Shown piece after piece: positions 38,386 to 52,328 of a stretch of 64,000 nucleotides of DNA. Each line of letters opens with the position of its first letter. Within the stretch, counting starts at the first letter, position 1. The DNA is from an uncultured Bacillales bacterium. GTDB taxonomy: Bacteria; Bacillota_I; Bacilli_A; RF39; UBA660. Under the pieces are notes generated by a model. The model was not told the origin of the DNA and searched no databases. It saw only the letters and a program-made list of their open reading frames with translations. The stretch spans positions 20,580-84,579 of the forward strand of contig CAMUXV010000001.1 of NCBI GenBank assembly GCA_947164795.1, read 5' to 3'. The position numbers were made by a program, and so were the translations under genes.

Positions 38386-38815
38386 GTTTATTATAATTAT
38401 ATAGTGATAAAATTAATATAAATTATAATTATCAATTTAAATATTAAGCAGTGGTGCAAATAATGCTACTGTTTTTTTATATAAAAAAATCTTTATATTA
38501 ACTGTAAACCAACTGATAGTAAATAGCACAATGTTTCTACAAAAAGTTATAGATTTTTCTTCAAACAGGTTATATCTTGCAATTACAGAAGATATGTGAT
38601 ATAAAAAAACAAACCACTAGGGTTTGCTTATGTCAACATTGGAGCGATTGATTAAGTTATTTCAAACTATTTCACTAATGAAAAATCAATAGTTCTATCA
38701 ATTTCTAATAATATTCTAACACAGAAATTATTTTTTGTACATATTTTTTTTAGAATTGTTTTGGCTCTACTTGACACATCATAAAAATTATTTTATTATA
38801 ATAAGCAATTTAGTG

Positions 38816-38845
38816 ACACAAATATATATGATTTGTGTTATACTA
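38816..38845 (+). promoter_or_regulatory. promoter with long inverted-repeat operator ACACAAAT-N7-ATTTGTGT overlapping -10 (TATACT)
   Basis: 8-bp perfect IR arms directly upstream of Panacea gene. Confidence 0.4.
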
Positions 38846-38870
38846 AAATTGTAATAGGGAGGATTGAAAA

Positions 38871-39386
38871 ATGAAAAAGGAGGGCATTTTTTCAGCTTTA
38901 GATTTGGCAAAATACATATGCTATATGTATTATAAAAAATATAAAAAAGATATATCTCCAATAAAATTGCAAAAATCATTATATTTTTGCTTTGCATATT
39001 GGGGTGGTTACGTACGAAAAAACAATAAAAACAAAAACTTTGTTGAAGAAAGAATTTCTTTAAGTGAATATCTATTTGATGATACATTTAAAGCTTGGGT
39101 TTATGGACCAGTAATTCCAGAAATTTTTAAAAAATATAAAAACAAAAATATTGATTATGCAGATTTAGATGTTGATTGTATTTTTGACAAAACTAATATT
39201 ACAGTAAAAGAGGCTATAGATAGTTTACTTAATGAATTGTTTGAAGTTAGTGATTTTAAACTTGTTAGTATTTCACATGAAGATGAATGCTGGAAAAATC
39301 ATTTTGATATCTTTGCAGATGATCATGATGAAGATATTCCACCAGAAGAGATAATAAATGAATATGCACTTAGGAAAACAGTTTAA
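38871..39386 (+). CDS. Panacea-domain (DUF4065, GepA/SocA-like) putative antitoxin
   Basis: KLQKSLYFCFAYWGG ... AWVYGPVIPEIF pattern characteristic of DUF4065; GGGAGGA RBS. Confidence 0.6.
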   Translation: MKKEGIFSALDLAKYICYMYYKKYKKDISPIKLQKSLYFCFAYWGGYVRKNNKNKNFVEERISLSEYLFDDTFKAWVYGPVIPEIFKKYKNKNIDYADLDVDCIFDKTNITVKEAIDSLLNELFEVSDFKLVSISHEDECWKNHFDIFADDHDEDIPPEEIINEYALRKTV

Positions 39387-39927
39387 ATCAAATCGATTTG
39401 ATAAACCTAATATTGATAAAACTAACCATATTAAAGATAGGAAAAGTTTTGGATTTGGTGAAGATATATTTGATTTTGACGATGCTTTAAAATCAGTGAA
39501 TATAAGTTGTTTGGAATTTACTAATTATTTTCATGATAGAAAAGATGTTAAATTTAAATTTGTAAAAAAAGAATATAATAGATTACTAAACCAACGAGTG
39601 AATTTAGATGATGAATATGAAATGAAAATTGTGAATACAGAGGATGGATTTAATGGATTAAAATTAAAAATGATTTATTCAGATACTTTAGGTAAAGAAG
39701 TAAGAGATTTTCCACTTATGTATAAATTAAAAAATCTCGCAAATAATGAATTGCAATTTTATGTTAAAAATGAAAATAGTAAGTATAAGGTTTGTTTTAT
39801 TGACATTTTCCATTTGGCAATACCTACCAAGCAACAAAATACAAAAGCTATGTATGAAGTTAATTCTTGTAACACATATGGACTAGATCATTTAAGAGAA
39901 GAGAAAAAGATAAAAGTATTAAATTAA
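39358..39927 (+). CDS. hypothetical protein overlapping Panacea gene by 29 nt; candidate cognate toxin
   Basis: translationally coupled downstream ORF, no recognisable family. Confidence 0.45.
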   Translation: MNMHLGKQFKSNRFDKPNIDKTNHIKDRKSFGFGEDIFDFDDALKSVNISCLEFTNYFHDRKDVKFKFVKKEYNRLLNQRVNLDDEYEMKIVNTEDGFNGLKLKMIYSDTLGKEVRDFPLMYKLKNLANNELQFYVKNENSKYKVCFIDIFHLAIPTKQQNTKAMYEVNSCNTYGLDHLREEKKIKVLN

Positions 39928-40058
39928 CATTTTTAAATTATATTGTTGACAAAACCATATATTTTAAATTATATTGGCTTGTCAACATTTTTAATTCTTA
40001 CAAAATTCAGTATTTAAGTTAATTGCTAATGCTATTTTTTTAATGATAAATATGTTTT

Positions 40059-40502
40059 TTAAAATTTATTATTACTTCTACCAAGTATATAATCAATAGA
40101 ATATTTACTATATTTTGATAAACTAATTAATATCTCACAATTAATTAGTTTTTCTCCTCTTTCATAACTACCAAGAGATGAAAAAGAACAATTTAAAGCA
40201 TTACCTAAACTTCTTAATGATAGTCCTAATTCTTTTCTTATTTCTTTTAATCTATTACCAATAAGTTCTAAATCTAAAGTATAAGTTTCTTCAATATTTT
40301 TTCTTATATCTGTAAGTTTTAGCATATAATCTATATTAACATTATAGAAGTTAGCTAACTCTGCTATTCTTCTAGTAGGAATAGGAATTTTATTATGTTC
40401 CCATTCAGAATAAGTAGATTCATTAACACCAAAATAACTTGCTACTTCTCTTGATTTTAAATTTCTTTCCACTTTTAAATCTTCTAAACGATTCTCATTC
40501 AT
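40059..40502 (-). CDS. XRE-family repressor with two tandem HTH domains (phage cI-like)
   Basis: two HTH_XRE units (LKSREVASYFGVNESTYSEWE.. and LRSLGNALNCSFSSLGSYERG..). Confidence 0.8.
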   Translation of the reverse strand: MNENRLEDLKVERNLKSREVASYFGVNESTYSEWEHNKIPIPTRRIAELANFYNVNIDYMLKLTDIRKNIEETYTLDLELIGNRLKEIRKELGLSLRSLGNALNCSFSSLGSYERGEKLINCEILISLSKYSKYSIDYILGRSNNKF

Positions 40503-40570
40503 CTACATCACCTATACAATTATATTTTCCCATTTAAATAGTTAATATTAATAAAACTTCTCTAAATACG

Positions 40571-49609: not shown

Positions 49610-51616
49610 TTATTTTTTATTTGTCATATCAATAATGACATCTTCTAGATTATCATCATCTGATTCTAATGCTTCTTCTAAATCTTTTTCTAATGCTAAA
49701 AGTGCTTCTTCAAATTCTTTTGCTTTTTTAATTGCTTCTTCTTTTTTCTTTTTAGTTTCTTCATCAGCCTCCCAAGTTCTGCAGTTAGTTCTCTCGGGAA
49801 TAGTATCAAATAAATCTTGCTTTTCGTCTTCTTCTAATTCACACTTTGTATTATCATCTACATAGATAATTCCAAGTTCTATTTTTTCTAATTTATCCAT
49901 CTTTTTATAATCTTCAATTGGAAATACTCTAACAATTTTTCTATTATTATAATCATTAAAATACATTACTTTTTTATCATAATAATATGTTGCTTCAAAA
50001 TAGCCAACATTATAAAACTCTCTTAAAGTAAATACTATTTCTTCAACTTTTTCTATTGGAAGGTATTCACTAAATCTTAATTTAGTTACTGTATTACCAA
50101 TTAGAGCATAATCTACTTTATCTAAATAACCATTATCATATAATTCATTCATTGGTTTGCATATACTTTCTCTAAAGAATACTTCACCAAGTCTTATTTT
50201 ATTATGCCCATAATATTCTAACTCTACATTATCTACATATCTCATAATTAAATCGGCTTTTTCTTTTCTAGTATAATCTTCCCACATATAAGTATTTTCT
50301 TCATATTCTTCTGGGAAAATTATTTTATTTATACAGTCTATATCTCTTTTAATTAAGATATCTTCTGGAGTAAATTTAAGTTCATTACATACATCACAAT
50401 CTCTTATCTTTGATTCTAAATTATTAATTGCTTCTTCAACAATTGCTCTTTCGTTATCATATTCTTCAATTGTAAATGAACCATTTACATATGCTTTTCT
50501 AATTCTTTCTTCTTTTAATTTTTGTTCATTTAATTCTTTAATTAATTTATCTTTAGGATTATTTAGTTTTGTTTTAATAATTGGAAGTAGTGTTTGATTA
50601 ACTACTGCATCATATTCTTGTATTTCATTTATAAAGTTATCAAACTCTTTTTCAATATCTGTTTCTCTTATAGATATCTTACAATTATTACATTGATAAT
50701 AGTAATAGATACTACCATTTTTCTTTGTGGTAGCATTACCACCTAATATTCTTTTACATTTAGGACATTTTAGTTTCTGTAAGAATAAATACTCTTTATT
50801 TCGTTTATAATTTTTAGAATTCTTTTTCTTTTGAACTTGGCATTCTTCCCATAATTCTTTTGTAATAATTGGCTCAACTACATTTTCATAATAAGTTGGA
50901 TTATTTGTTCTTTTACCATGAACAAAGTCTCCTTTATATACTTCATTTTCTATTATTTTTAAGATAGTATTATCTTTCCAATTTGTTTTACCAAATACTT
51001 TTTCTTTATTATAAAGATTTGCTATTGTCTGATAAGAATTACCTTCATAATATAAATTAAATATTCTAATAACTTGGTCTTTGGTTGCTTCATCTGGGAT
51101 TAACTTCTTATCAACATGTTTATAGCCAAAAGGTGCCCTGTGTGGAATATGACCATTAGTAATAGCACCAGCTAAACCGAATTTTGTTCTTTCACTAGTT
51201 CTTTCTATTTCATTTTGTGATACAGTAGTAAGTAGTCTAGCTACCATTCTACCATTAGCGGTAGTAGTATTTATATCGTCATTAGCACAGTCTAGATAAG
51301 CATTATTTTCTTCAAGAAATTTCATTATATCTTCCATATCATAAACACTTCTTGTTAGTCTATCTAACTTTAATACAACAATAGTATTACATCTCTTTGC
51401 TTTTATATCTTCTTTTAGTTCTTCAAAAGCTGGTCTATGATTACCAGTTTTAGCACTTATTCCAGCATCCTTATATATCTTATATATTTGATAACCTTTG
51501 AATTCACACATAGTACGAATTCTTTTTTCTTGCTCTGGCAAACTAAATCCTTCACGAGCTTGATCTTCAGTACTAACTCTTATATATATTCCAGCAATTT
51601 TCTTTTCTTCACTCAT
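49610..51616 (-). CDS. large serine recombinase (resolvase catalytic domain + recombinase domain + zinc ribbon + coiled coil)
   Basis: [11 protein letters not shown] catalytic Ser motif, CPKC..CNNC zinc ribbon, 668 aa. Confidence 0.9.
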
Positions 51617-51643
51617 AACAATCTTCCTTTCTTATTCTTATCT

Positions 51644-51700
51644 TCATCAAAAAAAGAGGCGACAAAGACTATGAAATTATGTCTTTGACACCTCTTAAAC
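51644..51700 (-). terminator. minus-strand rho-independent terminator (AAGAGGCGACAAAGAC..GTCTTTGACACCTCTT) between 91-aa ORF and recombinase
   Basis: 14-bp imperfect stem with A-run on plus strand side. Confidence 0.4.
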
Positions 51701-51870
51701 TTATTTCTATATAATACTTATTTAAACTTCGCTTCATATATCCCCCAAAATATAAAAATCGTTTTTCTTGGTTATTTATTATATATAGTTTTATTGAAAA
51801 GTCAAGACATAAGCCCATTTAAAGCCAAATTAGGCTTGTTTTCTGGAAGTTGGTATCATTATAGTTAACA

Positions 51871-52146
51871 TTAGTTTAATGCTTTTAGAAAGGCCTCTAA
51901 ATCCTTTAATTCAATTTTATTTGATAAATTACCAATATATAAAGTCTTAGAATAATTAAATGCTAGAAAAGTTATTCCTTTAATAATTATTCTATGTGGT
52001 TCAATATAAGATAAGTTTGTTCTATCTATATTTCTAATAGCACCATTTATTATAGTTGGAGTGATATTAGAAAATTCACATATAAACTCTATCTTCTTTT
52101 TTAGTTCTTTATCAAATTCTAGTCCTTTAGTTACTATTTTAATCAT
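51871..52146 (-). CDS. hypothetical protein (91 aa)
   Basis: ORF only. Confidence 0.3.
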   Translation of the reverse strand: MIKIVTKGLEFDKELKKKIEFICEFSNITPTIINGAIRNIDRTNLSYIEPHRIIIKGITFLAFNYSKTLYIGNLSNKIELKDLEAFLKALN

Positions 52147-52254
52147 ATAAATCTGTCCTTTCTTTACTTAACAACAAAAAATACCAACTTCTTTTAGAAA
52201 TTGATATTCATATATTAAGTCCAAATCATCAAAAAGTTCGGACAGATTTCCCAT

Positions 52255-52328
52255 TGGAGCAGGTGATGAGAATCGAACTCACGCAGTCAGCTTGGAAGGC
52301 TGAGGTTCTACCATTAAACTACACCTGC
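52255..52328 (-). tRNA. tRNA-Gly (anticodon UCC)
   Basis: reverse complement GCAGGTG-TAGTTTAATGGTAGAAC-TCAGC-CTTCCAA-GCTGA-...-GTTCGATTC-...-CACCTGCTCCA gives cloverleaf with anticodon loop CUUCCAA. Confidence 0.85.

Follow-up and report, generated by a model that had tools for sequence, protein, structure and literature searches.

In this study, we have analysed a stretch of 64,000 nucleotides (contig CAMUXV010000001.1; hereafter the window, to whose numbering all coordinates refer unless another locus is named) from an uncultured gut bacterium, where an island of 13.6 kb abuts the 3′ end of a minus-strand tRNA-Gly(UCC) gene. We have found that the island is real mobile DNA, inserted by a large serine recombinase (LSR) exactly at the 3′ end of the tRNA gene, and that it is one of many related islands competing for the same tRNA site; within this abundant, undescribed family, the copy in the window is unexceptional. 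The segment 38646–52254, together with one copy of the sequence GCTCCA, is very probably an integrative mobilizable element (IME): it encodes its own LSR, it has attachment (att) repeats at a specific and polymorphic target, and it has no complete type IV secretion system (T4SS) module, which are among the properties by which IMEs are recognized sensu Guedon et al. (2017). An IME-like reading had been proposed in a first-pass annotation of the same DNA; it is supported here by the gene content, the polymorphic site, and the terminal arms and the empty site of sister elements, while mobilization is the part that we infer.

The insertion site and the ends of the island

The single tRNA gene of the window is tRNA-Gly(tcc), located at 52255–52328 on the minus strand, called by ARAGORN and by Rfam (69 bits) at the island end where the first-pass annotation had read it; it is a gene of the host that provides the B arm of the bacterial attachment site (attB) and is intact after the insertion, and a promoter match (11/12) is located upstream of it at 52346–52374 (−). 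The 9-mer CATTGGAGC has exactly two copies in the window, at 38637–38645 and at 52252–52260 (both + strand), which gives an island length of 13,615 bp from repeat to repeat; its expected count is 0.06 per window, and two or more matches were obtained in none of 100 shuffles. The tRNA-proximal copy covers the final 6 nt of the tRNA gene (52255–52260), which read GCTCCA on the minus strand, i.e. the acceptor 3′ end including the encoded CCA, and the tRNA-distal copy carries the same GCTCCA, the crossover core, on its minus strand. Imperfect 17-bp repeats had been suggested as att remnants: both of them are present at the ends (CATTGGAGCGATTGATT and CATTGGAGCAGGTGATG, identical at 13 of 17 positions), but the functional shared core, as judged from the comparison of the sister trio L081/L193 described below, is the 6-bp GCTCCA and not 17 bp, with the additional ATG and TGAT being similarity of the arms, outside the core. 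The GC content is ~25% inside and outside the island alike, so composition gives no island signal.

Judged by comparative sequence data, both island ends are fixed to the base. At the right end, locus L136 of the same species is 99.8% identical to the window over 994 bp, from the interior of metK through the riboswitch and the tRNA promoter to the entire tRNA; the identity halts at 52255, the final tRNA base, and a different element lies beyond, whose LSR is only 29% identical to that of the window. At the left end, locus L091, also of the same species, encodes a 132-aa protein that is 98% identical to the left-flank protein of the window; it is near-identical to the window through ...CATTGGAGCGAT (also given as ...GCTTATGTCAACATTGGAGCGAT), with the identity ending 3 bp inside the element, right after the repeat, where the end of a different element follows. 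Since the window breaks away from L136 on the right and from L091 on the left, both boundaries are breakpoints of a within-species polymorphism, and they coincide with the ends placed by the first-pass annotation; the tRNA belongs to the host and the site is polymorphic. Two further contigs of the same species (L090 and L092) break off ~230 bp short of the far end, 20 bp past the stop codon of the gene for the 132-aa flank protein, as may be expected if strain heterogeneity interrupts the assembly at this locus.

Sister elements and the empty site of a sister element

The module tRNA-Gly(tcc)–o91–LSR–MobV, where o91 is an orphan gene of 91 codons and MobV is a relaxase, recurs in the two contexts that we have examined, with LSRs that are 80–81% identical. 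The cargo of these sisters is wholly different, with an OLD-family nuclease and a SUKH protein in one, versus a sortase and a ubiquitin-like protein in the other, and the host contexts upstream of the tRNA also differ (cation-efflux gene and 253-aa gene versus tex and 182-aa gene). The near, tRNA-proximal end of the sister elements reads GCTCCA/WTGGGAAATCTGTCCGAAC, with the junction alignment ...CACCT GCTCCA / WTGGGAAATCTGTCCGAACTTTT, and their far end reads AGTTTGAAATAACTTAAYCAATC/GCTCCA, with divergent sequence beyond.

The island of the window carries both family arms, and an internal att-like site was not found in it. The far-end P arm, derived from the element attachment site (attP), is AGTTTGAAATAACTTAATCAATC at 38646–38668 (−); it is kept at the far ends of L081 (18320), L082 (17986) and L088 (8268), with divergence beyond. 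The near-end P′ arm, also derived from attP, is GGAAATCTGTCCGAACTTTT at 52232–52251 (−); it is invariant in L081–L088 and in L085, and it starts right after GCTCCA+1. The reconstructed attP reads ...AGTTTGAAATAACTTAATCAATC-GCTCCA-ATGGGAAATCTGTCCGAAC...

An exact empty site is available for the element of L081, whose LSR is 80% identical to that of the window: positions 1–3022 of L193 correspond to 6355–9376 of L081 at 97.6% identity, up to the tRNA end, and positions 3017–3145 of L193 correspond to 18320–18449 of L081 at 96%, with an element of 8.95 kb between the two parts. Only GCTCCA is duplicated, and the flanking bases differ between the recombination partners, which places the strand exchange within these 6 bp.

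Past the far end of the L081 element, a segment of 3.2 kb (L081 18326–21518) contains coaBC-like genes (DFP, Flavoprotein) and a LysR regulator, and has no recombinase. Its end, cttaatcGCTCCA, is continued by the terminator and the 132-aa-gene flank that also border the island of the window. This segment could be a recombinase-less, cis-mobilizable-like remnant, but its first 130 bp also follow the tRNA in the empty site of L193.

Two other arrangements have been considered and set aside. The sequence that follows the far end in L088, GAAGCAAAAATCG..., had been a candidate for host flank, and ten loci with the tRNA followed by GAAGC... had been candidates for empty sites; both were ruled out by tblastn, which places an o91/LSR pair (40% identity) directly after, and the sequence in L088 is thus taken as the near end of a second, tandemly placed element. 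Locus L085 was rejected as a circular attP junction, because the arm on its left does not match that of the cognate far end, and is better read as a tandem junction, where the far end of one element appears joined to the near end of another.

Population survey of the tRNA-Gly site

In order to explore the use of the site, metagenome contigs were scanned for the exact tRNA sequence, which gave 100 loci (L107–L206), 86 of them informative. An LSR homologue, an o91 homologue or both occur within 1 kb downstream of the tRNA in 47 of the 86. In one related species, where the region of tex and the tRNA is at least 98.7% identical over 2454 bp, at least ten different forms follow GCTCCA (...CACCTGCTCCA). 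One of these forms (L115) is empty, with a terminator following the tRNA and no LSR within 11.6 kb; the non-empty forms open with arm-like sequence, and most of them have an o91 or LSR homologue (LSR identity 28–59%) located 90–650 bp downstream, while in a few the contigs are too short to show o91 or LSR, or have no LSR.

Two LSR clades share the tRNA-Gly site: one is always accompanied by o91, and the other, whose LSRs are 28–29% identical to that of the window, is without it. The second clade (e.g. L111, L136, L143 and L202) uses the same GCTCCA core, has the near end TTTGAAnACAACTTACG, and is present in the species of the window (L136). Tandem arrays are common, with a second recombinase module located downstream in L082, L128, L133 and L137. 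In L172, an LSR of the window's family (89% identity over 139 aa) stands beside a tRNA that follows tex, in a context unlike that of the window; the occurrence of the same family beside the tRNA in a different context indicates that the tRNA is a targeted host gene and not a cargo gene.

The recombinase and its paired orphan gene

The LSR is a protein of 668 aa, encoded at 49610–51616 (−) next to the tRNA-proximal end, where the first-pass annotation had located it; Pfam assigns the Resolvase (PF00239, 3.9e-33) and Recombinase (PF07508, 4.3e-17) domains to it, and a promoter-like site is located at 51778–51805 (−). In the alignment of the catalytic domain, its catalytic-serine motif YIRVSTEDQ is opposite YTRVSTTNQ of the TP901-1 integrase. 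All 8000 scored candidate relatives reach E≤1e-20, with identities of 76–83% to the LSR of the window in the 120 listed; they come from metagenome-assembled genomes of Bacilli, including Candidatus Onthousia, and are named only as “recombinase family protein”. Annotated phage integrases and plasmid recombinases, the plasmid collection included, reach no more than ~33% identity, and the nearest annotated relatives are staphylococcal phage integrases (~30%).

Directly upstream of the LSR gene is the orphan gene o91 (51871–52146, −), which encodes a conserved 91-aa protein of no family. We have found 3115 homologues; 24 of them have been aligned, at 77–95% identity, and 47 columns are invariant among the 25 sequences. 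In the fetched loci, o91 is present with every LSR homologue of 37–59% identity (matched over at least 300 aa) and of 80–81% identity, and with none of those at 28–29%. As o91 tracks one LSR clade, its position makes it a candidate to act with the LSR, either as a recombination partner or as a directionality factor. In two loci (L164 and L203), an extra small open reading frame (ORF) of ~100 aa is located between the near-end terminator and o91, 70–400 nt past the tRNA end; by this sequence comparison, the near-end module is itself variable.

The relaxase and the candidate origin of transfer

The MobV relaxase (447 aa, 47983–49326, −), called by Pfam as Mob_Pre (PF01076, 2.4e-14), matches MobM of plasmid pMV158 (4LVI), with HFDESSPHLH opposite the metal-binding HLDESTPHMH; the HxxR motif is read from the sequence as HNLR, at residues 51–54. 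It is 75% identical in L087/L088, and plasmid MobV relaxases reach at most ~36% identity to it.

The LSR and mobV genes are separated by a spacer of 283 bp, where conserved inverted repeats upstream of mobV (49390–49525, −) form a candidate origin of transfer (oriT). The first inverted repeat, at 49478–49519, reads CTTTATG...ATAAAGTATA, with GGTTTC after it; another hairpin, a long one, is located at 49398–49452. The region consists of conserved blocks, the changes in the arms keep the pairing in L081 and L087, and the z-scores of the fold are −3.95 and −5.46. The arms, together with the following AAAGTATA, match the oriT of pMV158, ACTTTATGAATATAAAGTATAGTGTG/TT (PMC5863519).

Terminators and the tRNA–o91 leader

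Just outside the island, on the strand of the tRNA, the terminator scan has located an intrinsic terminator at 38607–38629 (−), with the sequence AAGCAAACCCTAGTGGTTTGTTT and a T-run; the same terminator flank follows GCTCCA in L081 at 21513. In the empty sites of relatives, a terminator comes directly after the tRNA, so that 38607–38629 makes sense as the original tRNA-Gly terminator: it is probably this terminator, displaced by 13.6 kb, and the B′ flank of attB.

A terminator-like hairpin with a U-run, supplied by the element, is located at 52173–52209 (−), ~45 nt past the point where the tRNA ends. This hairpin is under the GC-pair threshold of a simple terminator scan; its stretch is invariant in the sister elements, and nearly every other element family at the site has a different hairpin and T-run at the same place, which argues for a function.

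The leader of o91, i.e. the 108 nt that separate its start codon from the tRNA (52147–52254, −), has a strong fold of −32.9 kcal/mol (z −6.4). In the predicted fold, GGACAGAUUU, the stretch that includes the ribosome-binding site of o91, is paired with the P′ arm GAAAUCUGUCC; in other element families, a local anti-Shine-Dalgarno hairpin (ATCCT...AGGAT) takes the place of this pairing. This modelled pairing may act as a translational gate for o91.

Repressor pair, cargo and flanking genes

The gene content of the island has been examined with Pfam on the island ORFs, and with PHROGs and PADLOC on 10 ORFs each. Capsid, terminase, T4SS and coupling-protein domains (including VirB4, VirD4 and TcpA) have not been found by Pfam on the island ORFs, or by PHROGs and PADLOC in their 10 ORFs each, and neither Pfam nor PHROGs has found portal, tail, lysis, primase or packaging-redirection genes. 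The absence of capsid, terminase and conjugation genes that the first-pass annotation had noted is thus borne out in these searches, as are the relaxase, the repressor switch and the toxin–antitoxin-like genes, with Pfam finding Mob_Pre, two HTH_3 domains, SocA_Panacea and PemK/MazF.

At the far end, a SocA_Panacea antitoxin gene (38871–39386, +; Pfam 3.8e-09) is overlapped by an ORF of 189 aa (39358–39927, +), a candidate toxin partner with no family match; this cargo pair has no homologue in any sister element that was fetched. It is followed by a double HTH_3 repressor of the XRE type (40059–40502, −; Pfam HTH_3 x2, 2e-18) and by a divergent ORF of 105 aa (40594–40911, +), and the latter two are kept as a pair in the sisters L087/L088, with 77% and 59% amino-acid identity, respectively.

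The variable cargo block (41098–46960, +) consists of nine ORFs, and none of the nine has a homologue in the other loci compared; several ORFs of the island are without a family. Among them are a YcxB-domain membrane protein (41584–42846, +) and a radical SAM enzyme of 287 aa (46097–46960, +), both identified by Pfam. The latter was considered as a viperin, i.e. a defence gene, and set aside: the only defence match of the cargo, that of PADLOC to pVip, is limited to the N-terminal radical-SAM core (residues 19–116) and is insufficient. Three promoter-like units of 46 nt (44571–44616, 45088–45133 and 46077–46122; D1 repeat family), with the layout TTGACA – palindrome ACAAA-CA-TTTGT – TATTAT, are each located just upstream of a cargo ORF (of 136 aa, of 270 aa and the radical SAM gene, respectively), and promoter matches of 11/12 fall within the repeated units at 44574 and 46080. 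The repetition of the units suggests that the three cargo genes may be under one operator-binding regulator.

Between the cargo block and mobV, a protein of 272 aa (47137–47955, −) has a C-terminal PemK/MazF domain (Pfam PemK_toxin, 2.8e-10, residues 140–243) fused to an uncharacterised N-terminal domain of ~135 aa, and a separate antitoxin ORF is absent alongside it. Its gene has a terminator at 47036–47065 (−; 13 pairs), and a perfect consensus promoter match (12/12) is located at its 3′ end, at 47145–47118 (−).

Outside the island, the left flank contains tex (34427–36586) and an XRE-membrane protein (36678–37787), both identified by Pfam, and the right flank contains a SAM riboswitch (52483–52566; Rfam, 65 bits) and metK (52681–53706; Pfam). 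The description of these flanks as conserved core genes on both sides holds within the species but not outside it, as synteny is not conserved in the relatives that we have compared. In the 22 relatives found through metK (62–76% identity), tRNA-Gly is upstream of metK in none and the synteny is slight, so that these genomes are of no use for defining the empty site; the homologues of the 132-aa flank protein (75–78% identity) occur in unrelated contexts, without the tRNA. In L115 and ~40 other loci of related species, tex directly precedes tRNA-Gly, is on its strand and is separated from it by ~185 bp; the tex gene of the window, by contrast, is convergent with the tRNA and located past the island's far end. 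This position is consistent with a rearrangement or inversion that had an endpoint near the att site, or it could reflect a lineage-specific gene order.

Proposed mechanism and alternative explanations

We propose that the LSR has recombined an attP of ~50 bp with an attB that consists of the last bases of tRNA-Gly(UCC) and the downstream, terminator-containing sequence. Strand exchange has occurred inside GCTCCA, and the tRNA is for this reason intact; its probable original terminator is now 13.6 kb off, and the element provides a replacement. Excision would be the reverse reaction, again carried out by the LSR and possibly steered by o91 as its directionality factor; the predicted attP junction of the excised circle is CAATCGCTCCAATGGGAAATC (also ...AACTTAATCAATCGCTCCAATGGGAAATCTGTCC...), and the predicted attB restored after excision is CACCTGCTCCAATGTTGACATAAGC (also ...TCATCACCTGCTCCAATGTTGACATAAGCAAACCC...). 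For transfer, the circle would be nicked by MobV at an oriT within the 283-bp spacer, and the nicked strand would leave through a mating pore provided by a conjugative element of the same host. We ascribe regulation, maintenance and accessory functions to the repressor pair, to the modules of Panacea and MazF and to the cargo block.

A further-reaching model can be drawn, which we regard as doubtful when taken as a whole. In this lineage of uncultured gut Bacilli, the 3′ end of tRNA-Gly(UCC) would be a shared landing pad for a radiation of mutually orthogonal LSRs (two clades or more, and over ten types of arm) that have GCTCCA as their common crossover, and o91 would be a directionality factor of a new type, co-evolved with the clade of the window's element. 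The synthesis of o91 would be gated by the leader, where an att arm pairs with its ribosome-binding site downstream of the element-supplied tRNA terminator, and the control of excision would in this way be coupled to read-through from the tRNA promoter.

Several points weigh against the identification of the island as an IME, or against parts of the proposed mechanism. The comparison with related genomes has provided the exact site for the sister element of L081 (L193) and an empty form (L115), but no empty attB for this exact species, and the attB pattern, i.e. the tRNA end joined to the terminator flank, has no match in the metagenome contigs. Exact-protein look-ups with the 132-aa flank protein, the LSR, metK and the identical o91 returned nothing, a circular attP junction was not seen for the element of the window, and a helper conjugative element is not visible within the 64 kb. 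With regard to the recombination module, the Zn_ribbon_recom domain (PF13408) of the LSR scores 22.9 bits, just under the Pfam cut-off of 25.3; o91 has no detectable similarity to known directionality factors and no Pfam, PHROG, PADLOC or fold match, and its AlphaFold models are of low confidence in four out of five cases, making the structure model unreliable. In each of the three attP reconstructions, dyad symmetry is highest around the CT of GCTCCA (11–13 of 24 positions), which is within the range of the shuffles, whose 95th percentile is 13; as a locator of the crossover, the CT is suggestive but falls short of significance, and was set aside. With regard to transfer, the search near mobV has provided a conserved inverted repeat that resembles the oriT of pMV158, but the candidate oriT and the nick site have been assigned by resemblance only.

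Two of these points, i.e. that neither a circular form nor an empty site of the same species was recovered, would also be expected if the island were an element of the same family that has been integrated by its LSR and is now immobile, a fixed island or remnant retained for its cargo. Remnant-like segments do occur at the locus elsewhere, with near-end arms that are not accompanied by an LSR in L162, L169, L195 and L198, and with the recombinase-less segment of L081 described above. We consider this explanation unlikely for the island of the window, where the LSR, o91 and MobV are of full length, the catalytic motifs of the LSR and MobV are intact, and both terminal arms fit the family consensus; moreover, strains that are 99.8% identical in the flank hold different elements at the site, which indicates recent turnover.

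A phage satellite or degraded prophage that moves inside virions and not by conjugation is a very improbable alternative. The XRE repressor is divergent from a small ORF, as in the switches of temperate phages, and the nearest annotated relatives of the LSR are phage integrases; nonetheless, their level of identity merely reflects the LSR superfamily, none of the phage functions that were sought by Pfam and PHROGs is present, and the island carries a MobV relaxase and an oriT-like repeat. That the tRNA-Gly is itself cargo, with the true boundary located to its right, beside the SAM riboswitch, is hardly credible: the tRNA is missing upstream of metK in the relatives found through metK and always accompanies the o91–LSR module, but L136 shares metK, riboswitch, promoter and tRNA with the window and then continues into an unrelated element, L134 shares cdf-metK-tRNA, the identical tRNA has no element downstream in many loci (e.g. 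L115 and L193), and the identity between elements starts only past GCTCCA.

Comparison with known systems

Having weighed these alternatives, we compare the island, read as an IME, with the systems that have been described. It resembles Tn4451/Tn4453, which carry the LSR TnpX and the Mob/Pre relaxase TnpZ (PMC5704250), in having one LSR for excision and integration, a MobV-family relaxase with an adjacent oriT (a candidate in the window) and no mating-pore genes, as well as in the size of ~6–14 kb and the Bacillota host. According to PMC5704250, the sites used by Tn4451 have a core of 2 bp in common, and its insertion is of low specificity and independent of a directionality factor; low-specificity insertion at GA-containing sites is a mark of the family. 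Unlike Tn4451, the element of the window is strictly specific for the 3′ end of tRNA-Gly, as seen in dozens of loci, has a 6-bp core and has a conserved small gene paired with its LSR. The element is outside the Tn4451 family, being site-specific and having an LSR to which plasmid LSRs are at most ~33% identical; TnpX itself was not aligned.

The very short end repeats, the variable cargo and the tandem or composite arrangements are shared with the IMEs of streptococci and other Bacillota that combine a serine recombinase with MobV (Coluzzi 2017, Guedon 2017; PMC5357655, PMC5704250). The IMEs with serine recombinases either have low specificity, like Tn4451, or insert within dispensable protein-coding genes and disrupt them, while the 3′ ends of tRNA genes are targets of IMEs with tyrosine integrases, and no directionality factor was known for serine-integrase IMEs according to a review of 2017 (PMC5704250). 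In a survey of mycobacterial prophages, all attB sites of serine integrases are located inside ORFs, with cores of 5–8 bp (PMC8092301). Unlike the reviewed serine-recombinase IMEs, the LSR of the window uses the 3′ end of a tRNA gene and preserves the gene. In contrast with both PMC5704250 and PMC8092301, the family shows that an LSR can use this type of target without disruption: no more than a core of 6 bp is shared, and a terminator of the element stands in for the displaced one.

By analogy, the closest systems in logic are the ssrA islands of Dehalococcoides (DsiB, PMC3146451), where a serine recombinase is located beside the 3′ end of a small stable-RNA gene, flanked by direct repeats of the RNA 3′ end; tandem arrays downstream, recombinase-less, cis-mobilizable-like members and variable cargo are further common features. 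The Dehalococcoides islands differ in that they target tmRNA, with a 20-bp repeat and a module of two recombinases (CcrA/B-like), and have no relaxase, whereas the element of the window has a tRNA target, a 6-bp core, a single LSR with o91, and a MobV relaxase.

The site also has a practical side, as it is a natural collection of many diverged pairs of LSRs and att arms with one crossover core; since LSRs serve as genome-engineering tools (PMC10083194), the collection could aid the study of how att-arm specificity evolves, or supply orthogonal integrases with defined attB and attP. In addition, the family documents an active gene flux, with defence-like and toxin–antitoxin cargo and tandem accretion, in uncultured gut Bacilli of small genome.

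Lastly, the target at a tRNA 3′ end, the intact gene, the hotspot character and the tandem junctions are shared with the tRNA islands of tyrosine integrases (NBU1, phage-inducible chromosomal islands and many integrative and conjugative elements) and with tycheposons; an LSR has been found in 27 of 937 tycheposons and cryptic elements (bioRxiv 10.1101/2020.12.28.424599). Unlike the tyrosine-integrase islands, whose long cores of tens of bp rebuild the tRNA end, the element of the window shares only GCTCCA with its target and uses a recombinase of the serine type. What is new, in comparison with all of these systems, is a family of very probable IMEs that is LSR-driven, non-disruptive and specific for the 3′ end of a tRNA gene, and that has a paired orphan gene.

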